NCBI GenBank assembly: GCA_044229975.1
Contig: JBGARZ010000010.1
Span: forward strand, 318,009 to 382,008
Length of the DNA stretch: 64,000 nucleotides
Reading direction: 5' to 3'
From: Polyangiales bacterium
GTDB taxonomy: Bacteria > Myxococcota_A > Polyangia > Polyangiales > Ga0077539
The position numbers and the translations under genes are program-made. This document shows, one piece after another, positions 8,535 through 23,371 of the stretch. Position 1 is the stretch's first letter, and each line of letters starts with the position of its first letter. The notes under the pieces were generated by a model. It worked only from the letters and a program-made list of their open reading frames with translations. It had not been told where the DNA came from and did no database searches.

Positions 8535-9467
8535 TCAGCGTGAAGCGCGGCGGTTGAGGAGCTGGCTCTGAAGCTCCCTCAACGCGCCGTGCGCCGCGGC
8601 CTCGATGGCCCGCAGCCGCAGCCGTGGCAGCGGGTCGGGCAGGTCGGGAATCACGGGTGGTGCTTCCTGAACGGTTCCTGACCCGGCGAGCGTGGCGGCG
8701 ATGGCGTGCGCGGGCTCGCTCAACAGCACCAGCGAGACCTCGGCGCGGACGGCGATGTTGCCGCTCTCGCGCAGCGTGGTGAGGCCGCCTTCGAGCGAGT
8801 AGCGGCGCAGGCTCCCAGAGCGCAGTCGGGCGGTCACGGACGAGGGGAGCGTGGTGCCCGGGTGGAGGGCGTAGCGCTCGTCTTCGACCATGGCCGACTG
8901 GAGTGCTTCACGCAGTCGCAGCACGTGGCCCGCGTCGAGGGTGGCGTGGTTGGCGATGGGTCCGAGCGAGATGAGCACACGAACGCGCGACCAGTTGATG
9001 CGCCGCGGGGTGGGCGTCGCGACGGGCTGGATGGTCGGCACCGCCGCGGGGTTGGCGGCGGACTGCGCCGACCAGGCGCCCGCGGTGTGCGTGGGCATGC
9101 GCGCCATGAGCGTGTGGAGGGCGTGCATGACGGCGTCGCGGGCGGCGGCGTCGTGGTCGAGGGCGTGGTGGTTGAGGGCCGTGGTGGCGGCGGGGTCACC
9201 GAGGGCTTCGAGGGCCTGGGCGGAGGCCACGCGGACGGTGGCGGCGCGGTCGCCGAGGGCGGCTTCGAGGGCGGCGCGAGCGCCCATGGGGCGGAGTCGA
9301 CCGAGGGCCTCGGCGGCGCGCGCGCGGGCGCCCGCATCGGGCGAACGACGCAGGAGGTCGATGGCCGGAGACGACTGCGCGAAGGTGTTGGGGGCGAGGA
9401 GCGAGAGGGACAGGGAGAGCGAGAGGGCGAGGGCGCGAAGCGGGGCGGCTCGATCGGCAGGGCTCAC
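8535..9467 (-). CDS. Secreted HEAT-repeat protein
   Basis: AGGAG RBS before GTG 9467; signal peptide; repeats ARARAAEALGRL / VRVASAQALEALGDP. Confidence 0.75.
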   Translation of the reverse strand: MSPADRAAPLRALALSLSLSLSLLAPNTFAQSSPAIDLLRRSPDAGARARAAEALGRLRPMGARAALEAALGDRAATVRVASAQALEALGDPAATTALNHHALDHDAAARDAVMHALHTLMARMPTHTAGAWSAQSAANPAAVPTIQPVATPTPRRINWSRVRVLISLGPIANHATLDAGHVLRLREALQSAMVEDERYALHPGTTLPSSVTARLRSGSLRRYSLEGGLTTLRESGNIAVRAEVSLVLLSEPAHAIAATLAGSGTVQEAPPVIPDLPDPLPRLRLRAIEAAAHGALRELQSQLLNRRASR

Positions 9468-9596
9468 GGGTGATCTCCTAGGAGCGATCGATGCGGGGAG
9501 GGGGCGAGACGTTCTACGCGCAGGGGGAGAGATGAGCAACGGGCGGGCGATGGCGCTGTAAGGTTCGGCGCGCTCACGGGACAGACGGGGCATCCG

Positions 9597-10764: not shown

Positions 10765-11256
10765 TTACGCGACGACGGGCGGAAGCGACTCCAGCCAAGC
10801 CTTCGCCTCGGCGAATGAGAGCAATCGCCCCTGCGCGCGGAGGGACGTCCACTCCGCTCCGGTGTCCTCCGTGACCGCGACGGCCTCGGTGGCTCCCTCG
10901 ATCATCAGGGAGATGTGCCAGTCGGTGGTCATCGACGCTCGCTGACCACCCTTCGCCCTTTGCCAGAGGTCCCTGGTCGGAAACCGATCGGCGAGGAGGT
11001 CGGCCCACCGCCGAGCACAATCGAGGTCCAGCGTGAGCGTTTCGATCTCGAGACCGCCGGGGGCGAAGACCGAGTCGAACATCACTTCGTCGAACTGCGC
11101 TCCCCGCTCCAATCGCTTGAACCGCCGGGTCTCCAGATAGACCTGAGGATGGATGACCACCGGCACGCCGCGCTGGTTTGCGAGCCGCACCAGGGGCAGG
11201 AAGCTCGCGGCGTTTCTCGTGATGTTCGTGTCGGGCCAGAGCACCCGCGTCGTCAT
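10765..11256 (-). CDS. PIN-domain (VapC-like) nuclease
   Basis: Acidic quartet in PIN spacing: VLWPDTN, QVYLE, TTDWHI, AVTED; ATGA overlap with upstream ATPase. Confidence 0.7.
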   Translation of the reverse strand: MTTRVLWPDTNITRNAASFLPLVRLANQRGVPVVIHPQVYLETRRFKRLERGAQFDEVMFDSVFAPGGLEIETLTLDLDCARRWADLLADRFPTRDLWQRAKGGQRASMTTDWHISLMIEGATEAVAVTEDTGAEWTSLRAQGRLLSFAEAKAWLESLPPVVA

Positions 11257-12509
11257 TCGTCGGTTCCGTCGACGGCCCCGTCGCCCAGCATCGACGCGAG
11301 CTGGTCCTCCCGCCACGCCTCCCACGCGCGGCTGCCCTTCACGAACCAGACGGCGCCCCCGCGCTCGATGCCCATCTCGTGGCGCATCCCATCCGGCAGC
11401 CGCGTGTAGCCCTCGCCTGTGACCCAGTGGGAGAGCGCCCCAGCCTTTCGCGCGCGATCTGCCAGCACGGGATCGCCGCGCTCCGACGGAGCCTTAGCCA
11501 CCCTCACTCCGCGCTCGTCGCGCTCGAAGCGCACCACCTCGGGACCATCGAAGGACGGGACGTGGCTCTCGATGATGATCTGGTCCTTAAAGCCGGCGTC
11601 GACCAGCTCTTCGAGCACGCGGCGAAAGATGATCTGGTTGTCGACGTCGAGGTTGAGCTCGGGTTCTTGGATGGCGAGCACCGCCGCGCGGGAGAGCATG
11701 ACGCTGGCGAGGAGCGTAACGATCTGCTGCTCGCCGGAGCTCAGCTCTTCGAGACCCAAGATGAGCCGCCCCCGCTCTTCGAAGGTGAGCTGTGGGACCG
11801 AGTTGGCGCCGATGCGGTCGATCGAGACGACCCGCCCCTTAAAGGCGTCGAAGCGGCCGAGCACTTCGGCGAAATAGCGCCACGACTCGCGGTCTCGCGG
11901 CTCTCGGGAGGTTCGAAGCGAGAAGAGCTGCTCCGCTAGTGCGCCGTGAAGCAGAACATCGGAAAACTGCGGTTGCTGCCAGGAGATCTGTCGACGACTG
12001 CTGACGATATCAAACGCATGACTGGCGTCGCCAAAGGGGGCCGAAACCCACGTGCGTAGCTCTTGCGCACGCTCTTTCGAGCCCAGGATGCGAGCCGCAG
12101 TCTCATCTCCAGAGACAACCAAGACAGGCGTATTGGGGCCGACTTCGAAAGAGAACAGAAACTCGCCCAGATCGGTGTTCTCAAGTGCCAATACCAACTT
12201 GAACGGGTGTCGCGAATCGACCGGTCTGTCTCGCGGAGCAACGCCAAACTGGGATTGTCGCTCGCCAAAACTACTCTTCCAGTCACCCGCTGGGCCGCCA
12301 CTGGCGCGCACGCTCGCAAGCAGGTGGAAGGCGATCATCAGCGCCACCTGCGCCGTCGACTTGCCCGTCCCGTTGCGCCCGTGGAAAGTCACCACCGGGT
12401 CAGCGAGCGGGATCTCAACCCGCTCGCCAAACACGCGGAAGTTCTCGATCGCGAGGGACTTCACCCGGAGGGATGGCCCGATCCGGGGCGGTAGCATTGG
12501 CACGTTCAT
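11253..12509 (-). CDS. ABC/AAA_21-type ATPase with C-terminal AbrB/MazE-like domain
   Basis: IENFRVF, Walker A GRNGTGKST, signature LSSGEQQ, Walker B LAIQEPE, switch ESH; tail VTGEGYTRLPDGMRHEMGIERGGAVWF. Confidence 0.82.
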   Translation of the reverse strand: MNVPMLPPRIGPSLRVKSLAIENFRVFGERVEIPLADPVVTFHGRNGTGKSTAQVALMIAFHLLASVRASGGPAGDWKSSFGERQSQFGVAPRDRPVDSRHPFKLVLALENTDLGEFLFSFEVGPNTPVLVVSGDETAARILGSKERAQELRTWVSAPFGDASHAFDIVSSRRQISWQQPQFSDVLLHGALAEQLFSLRTSREPRDRESWRYFAEVLGRFDAFKGRVVSIDRIGANSVPQLTFEERGRLILGLEELSSGEQQIVTLLASVMLSRAAVLAIQEPELNLDVDNQIIFRRVLEELVDAGFKDQIIIESHVPSFDGPEVVRFERDERGVRVAKAPSERGDPVLADRARKAGALSHWVTGEGYTRLPDGMRHEMGIERGGAVWFVKGSRAWEAWREDQLASMLGDGAVDGTDE

Positions 12510-12570
12510 CGCGACCAGAGCGTACCCGCCACCCACGCCGCGTGGCTACCTCAAGCTCCATCGCCCTCCC

Positions 12571-17715: not shown

Positions 17716-18765
17716 ATGATCAAGCGGGTGCGGCTCCAGAACTACAAGAACCACCGCGACACGGAGGTCGAACTCCGCCCGCTGACAGTGCTGGTCGGAC
17801 CCAACGGCGCGGGCAAGACGAGCTTCTTGCAGGGGCTCCAACTCTTGCGAGGAGTGCCTGCGACCAACGTCGATCATTACTTCACCAGAGGTGGTCCCTC
17901 GATCGAGGCAGTCGTTCATCGCGGTAGCGATGCCGTCGCACTGCAAGCAGAGGGCACGGTGGTTGGAGAGCCATGGTCGGTTGCTCTCAACCTGCCGACG
18001 CGTCAGGTGGCTCATGGACGTTGGTCGATCGCCGACCAACCACCTGTCAGTTTCGGAAAGAACCTCGACTCGTCGCTCCCAGAGAACTCGCCGTTTCGTC
18101 AGCAATTGAAGGGCATCGAACTCTTCAGCTTCGACCCAAACAAGATCTCTGAGCCCGCGCAACTCAGTGAGGTAGTTCCAGCGGTCAAACCAGATGGAGC
18201 CAACACCGCTCCTACGCTCGCCACACTGAAGCTGACCGACCTCGGTGCATTTCAGCGCGTCGAAGCGGCTCTCCGGCAAGTGGTTCCAGGCGTTGAGCAC
18301 CTGCTCGTGAAGCCCGCACCCATGCCGACCGGCGGTGGCATCGGCTATCACGTCTCCTTCGACTTTCGCGGCGTGCCCGACGTGCCTGCGTTCGCTGCCA
18401 GCAGCGGGACCCTGGTGACCCTCGCACTGCTCACCGCGCTGCACGCGCCCGACGGCCCGCGCGTCGTGCTCATCGATGAGATCGACCACGCGCTCCACCC
18501 GAAGGCCCAGATGGCCCTCGTGCGACAACTGCGCGCGCTCCTCGCACTCGACCCTGAGCTCCAGATCATCGTGACGACCCACTCGCCGTACATCCTCGAC
18601 GCGGTCGACGTGGAGGACGTTCGGGTCTTCGCGACGCGCGCGGATGGATCGGTCGCGACCAGGTCGTTGGCGCAACACCCGGCCGCGGAGCGTACGAAGG
18701 GCACGCTGTCCGCTGGGCAATTGTGGAGCCTCGACGATGAGTCGACCTGGGTCGCGGAGGCGTGA
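17716..18765 (+). CDS. ABC/AAA_21-type ATPase
   Basis: LQNYKN, Walker A GPNGAGKT, signature ASSGT, Walker B LIDEID, HALHP, TTHSP. Confidence 0.9.
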   Translation: MIKRVRLQNYKNHRDTEVELRPLTVLVGPNGAGKTSFLQGLQLLRGVPATNVDHYFTRGGPSIEAVVHRGSDAVALQAEGTVVGEPWSVALNLPTRQVAHGRWSIADQPPVSFGKNLDSSLPENSPFRQQLKGIELFSFDPNKISEPAQLSEVVPAVKPDGANTAPTLATLKLTDLGAFQRVEAALRQVVPGVEHLLVKPAPMPTGGGIGYHVSFDFRGVPDVPAFAASSGTLVTLALLTALHAPDGPRVVLIDEIDHALHPKAQMALVRQLRALLALDPELQIIVTTHSPYILDAVDVEDVRVFATRADGSVATRSLAQHPAAERTKGTLSAGQLWSLDDESTWVAEA

Positions 18766-18768
18766 CGG

Positions 18769-19551
18769 GTGCCGACTTGGAGGATGTTCTGCGAGGCCGC
18801 GGCGGATCATCATACGACCGCAGGGATCGTCGATCGGGTCCTGGCTGAGCGTTGCGATGACTGGGTTCGAGATCTGCTCGAAACGTCTCCAGATGGTGTC
18901 CGCACATGGAGTCTCGACGAGCGCGGTGAACCCTGGTCTGACGTGCACTCGGTGCGAGACGTTGCTCGCTCGATGGGCCTGCGTCTCAACCACGGGCACT
19001 TCGGTGGAGAGCCCGCGGAGCCTTTCGCGCACATGGTCTTCAATGCGGTGCTCGTCGCTCGCGAGACGGCCAAGACGCTCGCCATCGACGCGCTCGTCAT
19101 CGTCGCGGACCTGGACAACCAACCCGCCGATCGTCTGAAGGGACTCGAACAGGGCCGCGTTCGAGGGCAGGCCGTTCTCGATTCCGTACCGGTGATCGTC
19201 GGTGCGCCGAACCCCAATCGAGAGGCGTGGGTGCTCGTCGGCTTCGATCCGCTCGACGCCGCGGAGCAGGCGAAGCTCGACGCTGAGCGCCGGACATTGG
19301 GCTTCTATCCCAACGAGTCCCCAGAGCGACTGGTGGCTGTCGACGAGCGTGCGCAAAACCACACCAAGAGGGTTCTCGACGTGTTGACCGGCGGCGACGA
19401 CGAGCGTGAGGCCCGGTGTTGGAGCGAATCTCGAATTGAGTCGTTGCAAGCGCGAGGTGTCGGCTGCGGCCTGACGCACTTCATGACCGAGGTGGAGCAG
19501 AAGCTCTGCCCGCAGATCGACAACCGCAGCAGGCCACCAACTGATCGCTGA
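18769..19551 (+). CDS. TOPRIM-like (DUF4276/RloB-type) partner of the ATPase
   Basis: N-terminal FCE..AD, central VADLD (DxD), EAWVL motif; 3 nt after ATPase stop. Confidence 0.65.
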   Translation: MPTWRMFCEAAADHHTTAGIVDRVLAERCDDWVRDLLETSPDGVRTWSLDERGEPWSDVHSVRDVARSMGLRLNHGHFGGEPAEPFAHMVFNAVLVARETAKTLAIDALVIVADLDNQPADRLKGLEQGRVRGQAVLDSVPVIVGAPNPNREAWVLVGFDPLDAAEQAKLDAERRTLGFYPNESPERLVAVDERAQNHTKRVLDVLTGGDDEREARCWSESRIESLQARGVGCGLTHFMTEVEQKLCPQIDNRSRPPTDR

Positions 19552-20657: not shown

Positions 20658-21635
20658 ATGACGGGACCATACGAACGCCTCGTGTCGAACCAAGATCTTC
20701 CTGACTCCTTGTGGAGTTCATCTGATCGGCACCTAATAATACCTCCAACGCTCGTTCGTGCGTATGCGAAAGCAATCGTTGCACATAATCTAGAGAGTCT
20801 GAGCCAAAAAGGGGGGGCAGGAAGCGGGCCGGTCGGGGGACTGACGAAAGAAGCGTCCGACCAGCATTTTGCTCAGTCTTTCTCAGGTTCGGTGGCGCGA
20901 ATGCAACTCGCGGCGCTAGACCCTGACTGTCGTGCGGAACACGTGGCCGACGCCTTCGTGAAAATGCTGGCTGGAGGCAAAGTACTAATCATTGACGTGC
21001 CGTCAGGCTCGGGGGCTGCCTCGCTAGCGTTGTTGTGTACGATATGTGAGCTAAGGGCGAAGAGCATCCTTCCGCGAATTCCATTGGATGTAGTGTTGAT
21101 CGGTGGCGAAATATCACCTCATGCGAGAGCATACTCGCAGTATTTGTTGGCGGAAGTGCGAGGTGATTTGTGCGATCAGGCGATCAATGTCGAGTCGCGA
21201 TTCGTGCATTGGGATGCGTGTGACCGAGCCTCAACTACCTTGCTAATAAAGCAAGTTGTTCGATCTATTGAGGGATGTGCTGGGGCGCTGATGGTTGTCG
21301 CGAATTTTAATGGCTTTCTCCATCAGTCGGGCAAGCAGAAGGAGGTGAGGCCGCAGTTGGAAGATTTGTTCCGCTATGCTGCTAGTTCAAACACCACAGC
21401 GATATGGATTGAACCTCAGAACAACGGAGCAGTGGCGCAGGGTGGACTGTTTCCCTGGCTCCGAAAGCTTTTTAAGGACACTTTCTTGCAAAAGCTTGTT
21501 GAGATGATTCCTTCCGGGTCGACCGATGATTTTGTCACGATGACGACCTCAAGATTTCGACATCCAATCCGTACGACGGACGTGTATGATGTGCGGCTTG
21601 CCGTCGTGCGATTTAGCCTTCGAGAAGAGCCATGA
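20658..21635 (+). CDS. Class I SAM-dependent methyltransferase-fold protein
   Basis: Motif I VLIIDVPSGSGAAS, motif II IGGEIS, motif III VHWD, WIEP; low-GC codon usage. Confidence 0.7.
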   Translation: MTGPYERLVSNQDLPDSLWSSSDRHLIIPPTLVRAYAKAIVAHNLESLSQKGGAGSGPVGGLTKEASDQHFAQSFSGSVARMQLAALDPDCRAEHVADAFVKMLAGGKVLIIDVPSGSGAASLALLCTICELRAKSILPRIPLDVVLIGGEISPHARAYSQYLLAEVRGDLCDQAINVESRFVHWDACDRASTTLLIKQVVRSIEGCAGALMVVANFNGFLHQSGKQKEVRPQLEDLFRYAASSNTTAIWIEPQNNGAVAQGGLFPWLRKLFKDTFLQKLVEMIPSGSTDDFVTMTTSRFRHPIRTTDVYDVRLAVVRFSLREEP

Positions 21636-23371
21636 TTCCCCCTCCTCCATCGTTGGTGTCCGTACGCGCAATCAATCAATATCGGAGGCGTGATGTATTT
21701 ACGTATCTAGCGTTGCGCTACTATCTTTCCACCAGTTCCGCGCGCCGTGACTCGTGGTGTTCCGACGTCGCACCGGCAGTCGTTCTGGGGCGAACCGCGC
21801 CTGGATACTTTCGCGCGGCACACTTCAAGGAGATCGTTGGAGATGAGCGACGAGTTGAACATAGACATATTTACCTCCCCGGAGCGAACGAGGCGCTCGC
21901 GGAATCATGGTTGCTGCGAGAGTGTTCGTTGCACGCATACTTTGCCAACCCTCCTTGTGTCTTTAGCTACGAGCTTGCACATCATGAAGCGAAGAATGGA
22001 ATGTTCTGCAATTATATGGATGGGTTGCGAAAGAGACACGGCGCTGTTGCGCTAGCCTGCCTTGAGTTTCCAGCAGGTATCGTCCAGTACACTGATATTC
22101 GACGTTTTTACCCTTCGATCCCCCACGCTGTTGCGCGGGAAGCTTGGCGGAAAGCTGTAGGATCGACTGGATTGGAGCGTCGCGCCGCGAATCTTGGCGA
22201 AAAACTATTGGATGACTATGCTGCGACGGGAGATTCCGAAGGTGCTTCCGTCATCGTCGGGCCGATGTTCAGTCATCTTATTGCGAATTTAGTTCTTCGT
22301 GACATTGACAGACTTTTGTCGTCGCGGCCTGGTGTGAGGTATTTTCGTTATGTTGATGATATGATTTTTGTCGGCAATCCGGAGGTTGTTCGCGAAGCGC
22401 TTGGAGAGGCATCTGATGCACTGGCCATGCTGGGGCTTGAGATGCACGATCGAGAATCTAGCAAATCTTTGGTCGTTGCGTGCTCGACTTGGCTTGTCGG
22501 ATCAGCCGATTATCAAGAGCAGCATCGGGGCATTTCATGGATGACGCTTATTGGCGATCTGAAACGCTTTCTCCTGCTCCATCCAGAAAGGAGAGAGGAA
22601 CTCGCCTCCGCAGCAATTCGAAAAGGCTTGCGTCTGCCGGTCGTGAACTATGGCGATGCAGTGCGTGAAAGATCTTTTTTGGCACGGTTTCGTGACCTCA
22701 TATCGTTTGATTGGTTGCGCACTAAAGCGAAGAAAATTTCAGTCGACTCAATCTTACAGCAGGCGGATCATCTTCGAGGCTCCTATGGCACAGAACTCCA
22801 GCAGCTGATGGTGCGCATCGATGAGTTGGATGCGTATGAACTCAAACGTCGATTGCCAAAAATCCGCTATCGTGCCGGTCGGCTGGTTTATATTGGACAA
22901 GAAAATGCTCTGCTGGAGTTGGGTGAATCGATGGAGACAATTCCAGCGCTTGCTTTCCATGCCGCCGTGATGAAGGCCGTCGCGACTGGTAATGTTACCA
23001 ATCTCTTAGCATTCGGTGGCAACGCCACTCAAGCCGCCGCGCAACCTTTGCGCGCCGCGCAACGGAGTGCCGTGATCGATCGTTTGCCTTCTAGTTCGGT
23101 GGAATGGCAGGGTCTATCGGTCTTCGGTATATACGGAGTGCCCGTGGTAGGGGCCCACGACATGTCGACGGCGGACGAGATTTGTCGGCTGGCGTTCTTC
23201 GCTGGAAGTGACCGTAGTCTGATGTCTAGCCAGAATAGTTTCATTCGTGAAGCCGCATGCTTGCATGGGATTGGTTTGGTTCGTCACTCGGAGATGATGG
23301 GTAGTGCATTCGACAAGGACGAGGAACTGGCGATGGACGCCGTTGATCAGTTTCATCTTTCGGTTTCGTAG
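21632..23371 (+). CDS. Reverse transcriptase (unknown-group/defence-type) with long helical C-terminal domain
   Basis: YTDIRRFYPSI, GPMFSHLIANL, YFRYVDDMIF catalytic motif; ATGA overlap with methyltransferase. Confidence 0.92.
   Translation: MIPPPPSLVSVRAINQYRRRDVFTYLALRYYLSTSSARRDSWCSDVAPAVVLGRTAPGYFRAAHFKEIVGDERRVEHRHIYLPGANEALAESWLLRECSLHAYFANPPCVFSYELAHHEAKNGMFCNYMDGLRKRHGAVALACLEFPAGIVQYTDIRRFYPSIPHAVAREAWRKAVGSTGLERRAANLGEKLLDDYAATGDSEGASVIVGPMFSHLIANLVLRDIDRLLSSRPGVRYFRYVDDMIFVGNPEVVREALGEASDALAMLGLEMHDRESSKSLVVACSTWLVGSADYQEQHRGISWMTLIGDLKRFLLLHPERREELASAAIRKGLRLPVVNYGDAVRERSFLARFRDLISFDWLRTKAKKISVDSILQQADHLRGSYGTELQQLMVRIDELDAYELKRRLPKIRYRAGRLVYIGQENALLELGESMETIPALAFHAAVMKAVATGNVTNLLAFGGNATQAAAQPLRAAQRSAVIDRLPSSSVEWQGLSVFGIYGVPVVGAHDMSTADEICRLAFFAGSDRSLMSSQNSFIREAACLHGIGLVRHSEMMGSAFDKDEELAMDAVDQFHLSVS

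Follow-up and report, generated by a model that had tools for sequence, protein, structure and literature searches.

An ABC ATPase with a probable AbrB-type C-terminal domain is encoded directly upstream of a VapC-like PIN protein in a Polyangiales genome

Introduction

In defence systems built on ATP-binding cassette (ABC) ATPases one kind of sensor is combined with many effectors, and the route by which a new effector is coupled to the sensor is not established in the literature compared here. The closest known system is HEC-03, an ABC ATPase with a VapC-like PIN protein, which defends against coliphages and requires both genes; its ATPase is reported to be unrelated to VapB (10.1101/2024.01.29.577857). 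In PARIS, AriA sequesters AriB and later releases it (PMC11464382), and the ATPases of NetFlax D29 act as antitoxins without an AbrB part (PMC10440598). In the AbrB-type toxin-antitoxin pair VapBC2 of R. felis, the β3/β4 hairpin and helix α1 of VapB2, led by Trp46, dock on VapC, residues 59-78 block the VapC active site, and Asn9, Gln11, Arg16, Lys19 and Arg22 contact DNA (PMC3326315). Here we describe a two-gene cassette that seems to join these themes. It lies on contig JBGARZ010000010.1 of a Polyangiales bacterium (assembly GCA_044229975.1), in the 64,000-nucleotide stretch from position 318,009 to 382,008; this whole stretch is called the window, and coordinates refer to it.

The cassette encodes an ABC ATPase that ends in a tail resembling an AbrB-type antitoxin, followed directly by a PIN protein. 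Its main parts are as follows.

11253..12509, minus strand: gene of a 418-aa ABC ATPase, SMC-head-like (AAA_15/AAA_21), that ends in an AbrB-type domain
11286..11426, minus strand: AbrB/SpoVT/MazE-type swapped-hairpin half-barrel plus one helix, residues 362-408
11256..11285, minus strand: short acidic, poorly conserved end, residues 409-418
11253..11256, minus strand: ATGA stop/start overlap
10765..11256, minus strand: gene of a VapC-like PIN protein of 163 aa, with D9, E42, D112 and D131 predicted to be catalytic

An initial annotation, made from the letters of the sequence alone, had pointed out the ATPase motifs, the tail, the 163-aa open reading frame (ORF) and the ATGA overlap, and all of these were found in place.

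Conservation of the fusion and of the gene pair

A protein search with 7997 scored candidates returned 47 other full-length homologues with 36-48% identity and 93-100% coverage, and the tail is in frame in every one of them. Because these 47 homologues carry the tail in frame, the fusion is not an artefact. A genome scan with the ATPase gave 47 loci, 20 of them full-length (L001-L020), in Sorangium, Polyangium, Chondromyces, Archangium, Myxococcaceae and deltaproteobacterial records. In all 20 a PIN homologue lies immediately downstream of the ATPase, and it is intact in 18. The 27 weak loci (L021-L047) encode unrelated ATPases without tail or PIN and are left out of the pair counts.

The same picture was obtained from the PIN side. 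When metagenomes were searched with the PIN protein, the tail was found immediately upstream in 25 of 25 loci, some of which are near-duplicates. A second, more distant clade (clade B), with a PIN identity of only 21-29%, shows the same gene layout: ten further PIN loci, two of them identical, have the ATPase upstream in nine cases and a tail remnant alone in the tenth (L056). The initial annotation had proposed a search for the same fusion in other genomes, and both the 47 homologues and the second clade answer it positively.

All three parts of the cassette, ATPase core, tail and PIN, are under purifying selection: the ratio of nonsynonymous to synonymous substitution rates in 11 close pairs ranged from 0.18 to 0.35 (core), from 0.06 to 0.26 (tail) and from 0.12 to 0.43 (PIN). 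The tail also has the highest mean identity over 28 loci (41%; 35% and 37% for the other two parts).

Two oddities were seen among the relatives. One clade-B locus occurs twice in a single genome assembly (L055 and L061), adjoining a Uma2-like (PDC-S03) gene. A database protein of 243 aa (P0184) joins the N-terminus of the ATPase to a PIN without the first acidic motif; it arose either by deletion or as a chimera during assembly.

Fold of the C-terminal tail

The secondary structure of the tail consists of a helix, two strands and a helix. In structure searches with the tail, all five top matches have the AbrB fold, and the best VIA match is MraZ over 63 residues, the last helix included. With the whole ATPase protein as query the Foldseek and VIA matches were taken up by the ATPase part, and the tail was not probed. 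The tail combines the hairpin-helix-hairpin monomer fold of the AbrB/MazE/SpoVT family with homology to family members. A profile of the tail run against 401 genomes is informative in this respect: 12 of its 15 weaker matches are free PF04014 proteins, and in nine of the 12 cases a full PF01850 PIN gene comes next downstream. The tail thus very probably has the AbrB-type fold that the initial annotation had assigned to it.

One can still ask whether a single frameshift or an error of assembly produced the fusion, or whether the tail is not AbrB-like after all. In favour of this, a Pfam search with the window proteins alone gave neither an AbrB nor a PIN match, and an Atlas search with the tail gave no usable match; both assignments are based on homologues and on structure searches. 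Profiles built from clade A only had no significant match in the PDB. In the PF04014 test on homologous tails, one of ten clade-B tails scored above the cut-off (25.4 versus 24.7 bits), and two of 20 clade-A tails matched below it. The artefact version is refuted by the in-frame tail in 47 of 47 homologues and in two clades, and the passing clade-B tail together with the 12 free AbrB antitoxins retrieved by the tail profile argues against the other version, so that we consider this explanation as a whole very improbable.

Origin of the tail and what it retained

The proteins nearest to the tail are, in 12 of the 15 cases described above, free AbrB antitoxins of vapBC-type pairs, which supports a graft. 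It is therefore very likely that tail and PIN descend from a vapBC-type pair. Short free proteins close to the tail were also looked for; 3600 candidates gave three matches, all of which were read as C-terminal pieces of clade-B ATPases.

Compared with VapB2 the fused tail is incomplete. It retains the hairpins and one helix, and in clade A W396 and W399 are invariant and L404 and L408 conserved. Its last ten or so residues are mostly acidic and not conserved, with no conserved column after position 409, and the net charge after residue 400 is negative in 45 of 48 fused tails. Behind the G384 column 32-43 residues follow in the fused tails (median 34, n=48) and 28-30 in the clade-B tails (n=3), versus 52-89 in the free antitoxins (median 55, n=9). 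Judged by length alone, the fused tail has no C-terminal extension that could block VapC. Position 366, E366 in this protein, is D or E in 48 of 48 fused tails versus K in seven of nine free antitoxins, and position 373, D373 in this protein, is K in two of 48 versus six of nine. The residues were mapped onto VapB2 by motif position and not by direct alignment, and the mapping of the DNA contacts is inferred.

With about 20 C-terminal residues fewer than the free AbrB antitoxins, the tail is unlikely to act as a full antitoxin or autorepressor. The graft appears to have kept docking and dimerisation and to have lost active-site blocking and DNA binding; docking without blocking is proposed because the counterpart of VapB2 residues 59-78 is missing from the fused tail. 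Docking of the PIN on an ATPase dimer is a more likely function of the tail than silencing of the PIN by the tail alone. The idea of the initial annotation, a vapBC antitoxin grafted onto an ATPase, therefore stands as regards the conserved fusion and the vapBC descent, and has to be restricted as regards function, as the tail is about 20 residues short and two lysines predicted to face the DNA are lost.

These losses also speak for a different explanation, in which the tail is a dimerisation clamp for the ATPase heads alone and the PIN is bound by the body of the ATPase, like AriB by AriA, or activated by it, as may be the case in HEC-03. The system would then be HEC-03-like, and the VapB relic would be structural. 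Unlike free antitoxins, the tail has neither the blocking coil nor the basic residues, and the MraZ match extends over the last helix. In addition, AAA ATPases alone neutralise toxins in validated pairs (PMC10440598), and AriB sits above the AriA dimer interface (PMC11464382). Against it, the retained part corresponds to the VapC-docking site of VapB2, with both tryptophans invariant in clade A. Together with the decayed loci described below, this makes a tail acting only as a clamp rather unlikely to us.

The PIN partner

The acidic quartet that the initial annotation had read in the 163-aa ORF is well conserved. All 28 PIN sequences of one comparison have D9, E42, D112 and D131, and among 149 representatives examined, 127 of the 131 that cover these positions keep all four. 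A PIN profile search gave 304 clusters at 50% identity. Atlas placed the protein with PIN clusters (0.92-0.93). PF01850 gave weak matches for six of ten clade-B proteins, and one further homologue scored above the cut-off (23.8 versus 23.6 bits). Against the PDB the top match of the PIN profile was VapC2 (3zvk, E 0.11), followed by three more VapC chains; all of these matches are weak (E 0.11-1.6). The family is unrecognised by the PADLOC library and barely recognised by Pfam. The PIN is very likely an active RNase.

The ATPase

The catalytic motifs of the ATPase are all retained in the 48 sequences compared.

12354..12380, minus strand: Walker A GRNGTGKST, residues 44-52; G44, N46, G49 and K50 invariant in 48/48
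11724..11744, minus strand: ABC signature LSSGEQQ, residues 256-262; L256, S257, G259, E260 and Q262 invariant in 48/48
11658..11672, minus strand: Walker B/D-loop IQEPE, residues 280-284; E282, P283 and E284 invariant in 48/48
11562..11570, minus strand: H-loop ESH, residues 314-316; invariant in 48/48

With all four motifs, an SMC-head fold and no permease partner, the protein belongs to the AAA15/21 non-transporter ABC ATPases, the ATPase type used by many defence systems. Walker B IQEPE had been called atypical, which is better described as a family trait, since position 281 varies (E in 32, Q in 11, A in four and T in one of the 48 sequences) and the catalytic E282 is constant.

Natural losses and proposed mechanism

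In several loci the cassette has decayed. Three loci have an intact tail without a whole PIN: a stop interrupts the PIN in L010, a frameshift breaks it in L093, and in L102 it is absent. Tail and PIN are both damaged in L014, L050 and L098, and in L014 a single deletion removes the barrel and the N-terminal half of the PIN. The opposite case is L056, where the PIN is intact and the ATPase is gone, and the last 47 codons of the tail are left upstream (L056:1974-2114, minus strand). In place of the ATPase there is an ORF with what we take to be an Rhs-like core motif, and then a further gene. Among the 35 loci found with the PIN as query, every intact PIN has a tail, or a remnant of one, upstream. 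These few cases fit a toxic PIN that would be restrained by the upstream product, and both L056 and the 35 loci weigh against a tail that only clamps the ATPase heads.

We propose the following mechanism. An AbrB-type vapB would have been fused to the 3' end of a gene for a defence-type ABC ATPase, ahead of its vapC. Two tails would form one swapped-hairpin barrel and thereby clamp two ATPase heads together, and the retained hairpin and helix (W399, L404, L408) would dock the PIN like site 1 of VapB2. With the blocking coil gone, the ATPase would silence the PIN by sequestering it, in the manner of PARIS. Binding of a trigger, which is probably made by a phage, and the ATP cycle would then release the PIN, which would cut tRNA or other RNA so that translation stops. 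DNA binding and autorepression by the tail are predicted to be lost. The separate parts of this proposal differ in strength. It is likely that ATPase and PIN form a complex, and we lean towards a contact that goes through the tail. For the full mechanism, an ATP-gated PIN toxin held by an ATPase dimer until a trigger arrives, we see about an even chance.

Gene layout and expression

The ATGA overlap suggests translational coupling of the two genes, and the offsets at the ATPase/PIN junction among relatives are mostly between -14 and +4. As the initial annotation had noted, the cassette genes are richer in AT than their flanks; the difference is modest, as the G+C content at third codon positions (GC3) is 0.785 in the ATPase gene, 0.84 in the PIN gene and 0.89-0.92 in five flanking genes.

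A scan of the window for consensus promoters and terminators found none. A TTGACC box (window about 12519-12524) is common to the regions upstream of the ATPase in L004-L010, L012, L013, L015 and L020; in these loci, from Sorangium, Polyangium and Chondromyces, a conserved stretch reaches almost to the start codon. At several of the remaining loci a TANNNT hexamer precedes the ATPase start by 5-9 bases. Such boxes may indicate leaderless transcripts. The search for an RNA holder of a Sorangium copy listed none, a result of no evidential weight.

Genomic context and distribution

The genome carries a single copy of the cassette. On one side lies a convergent pair of genes for an extracytoplasmic function (ECF) sigma factor and a putative anti-sigma factor, and on the other side a peptidase S49 gene, presumably sppA. 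The distribution is patchy and insertion-like: the ATPase occurs in three of 41 relatives and the PIN in ten of 401 genomes of the phylum, the own genome counted. In congeneric sppA loci the gene of window 8557-9518 directly abuts sppA in three of seven, and therefore both the cassette and the ECF pair give the impression of an insertion here. The content of the site 3' of sppA varies among congeners. In one of them a type I methyltransferase gene (L064:2834-3151, plus strand) occupies the same spot as the cassette.

The surroundings give little help to a role in defence. The linkage to defence genes is weak: around 13 loci, 112 neighbours had no matches other than generic ones, and the neighbours are mostly housekeeping by Pfam (95 proteins), most loci being solitary. 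Among 44 more neighbour proteins a type IIG restriction-modification gene lies directly upstream in L084 and Cmr6 in L052. A scan of viral contigs yielded 23 matching stretches with no relative among them, and a scan of plasmids gave no match. All in all an anti-phage role seems to us somewhat more likely than not.

The solitary position amid housekeeping genes would also suit a classical type II module similar to vapBC, in which the short acidic tail would suffice to neutralise the PIN, with the ATPase tuning the pair to a non-phage signal (nucleotide level, stress or other mobile elements) or aids selfish persistence. Gene order and overlap are as in vapBC, and among the decayed loci PIN loss beside an intact tail was seen and tail loss beside an intact PIN was not. 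However, the tail is shorter and acidic, no operator palindrome is common to the 20 regions upstream of ATPase genes that were compared, and the ATPase, of the AAA15/21 defence-type group, keeps all catalytic motifs under purifying selection. We regard such a module as unlikely and prefer the ATPase-held PIN.

Three further observations concern other candidate elements. Window 17716-19551 (plus strand) is a second ABC ATPase cassette with a GC3 of 0.74-0.76; it encodes a 349-aa AAA_21 protein, best PADLOC match HEC-01A (E 6.6e-43), and a partner of 260 aa without family match. Window 20661-23371 (plus strand) holds a gene pair of low GC (about 53%) and is a candidate defence-associated reverse transcriptase system. 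The reverse transcriptase has 579 aa and matches RT_UG36 (E 2.5e-170); the partner gene that overlaps it encodes 324 aa and weakly resembles RT_UG35 in its N-terminal part (E 1.8e-6). In L119:1471-1605 (plus strand) a weak PF04014 match (E 4.4e-4) ends a 370-codon frame, and the gene that follows is kinase-like and not a PIN; this is possibly another AbrB fusion.

Comparison with known systems

The coupling device appears to be visible in the sequence of this cassette, as the effector's own former antitoxin fused to the sensor. We tentatively suggest, with somewhat more doubt than confidence, that the cassette preserves an intermediate stage in the emergence of ATPase-nuclease immunity: a classical vapBC pair would have been captured whole by an ABC-ATPase sensor, its antitoxin, once a DNA-binding repressor and a plug of the active site, trimmed to a docking clamp, and the tRNase, formerly controlled by proteolysis of the antitoxin, placed under the ATP cycle of a sensor for phage proteins. 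The cassette offers a two-protein system with clear mutants (K50, E282, tail helix, D9) for studying the passage from a type II toxin-antitoxin pair to a sensor-gated immune module, and it adds the PIN family of 304 clusters.

AbrB-type VapBC, with R. felis VapBC2 as the example, shares with the cassette a swapped-hairpin antitoxin gene directly before a PIN gene and the docking segment of hairpin plus helix (PMC3326315); other PDB matches of this type come from Shigella, Salmonella and the F-plasmid. In contrast, the antitoxin part of the cassette stands behind an ATPase of about 350 aa, is about 20 residues shorter C-terminally and has two Lys at predicted DNA-facing positions replaced, and its PIN is longer and divergent (163-210 aa versus about 130). 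The PARIS effector AriB is a TOPRIM nuclease, whereas the partner here is a PIN; the sections compared describe no AbrB domain in PARIS (PMC11464382), and the match to the cassette consists of generic ATPase motifs only. Septu PtuAB, Menshen NsnB/NsnC and NetFlax D29 likewise combine a related ABC ATPase fold with nuclease effectors, but these are of the HNH, TOPRIM or BECR types. The PIN-like module of Menshen is described as inactive, unlike the PIN of the cassette with its four acids. The term AbrB occurs 0 times in both papers searched on these systems, and the passages compared of PMC8297831, PMC13092281 and PMC10853773 do not mention it either. Literature searches returned no title or abstract with an AbrB-fused ABC ATPase and a PIN; the main ABC-ATPase classification was outside their scope and may list the architecture.

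HEC-03 comes closest, with an ABC ATPase gene and a PIN gene as in the cassette. The 20 PINs of the family had no match at E<=0.01 to the HEC models of a library that has HEC-01A and HEC-02A and in which HEC-03 models are unconfirmed, and in the same library HEC-03A was not among the top 25 for four ATPases. The cassette is thus HEC-03-like in layout, with no HEC-03 model matched. The initial annotation had not recognised it as a named system. For the combination of an ABC ATPase with a VapC-like PIN this does not hold, as HEC-03 is already named and validated; it does hold for the VapB-related domain carried by the ATPase of the cassette, by which it differs from HEC-03, and this grafted AbrB domain is, provisionally, the new element.
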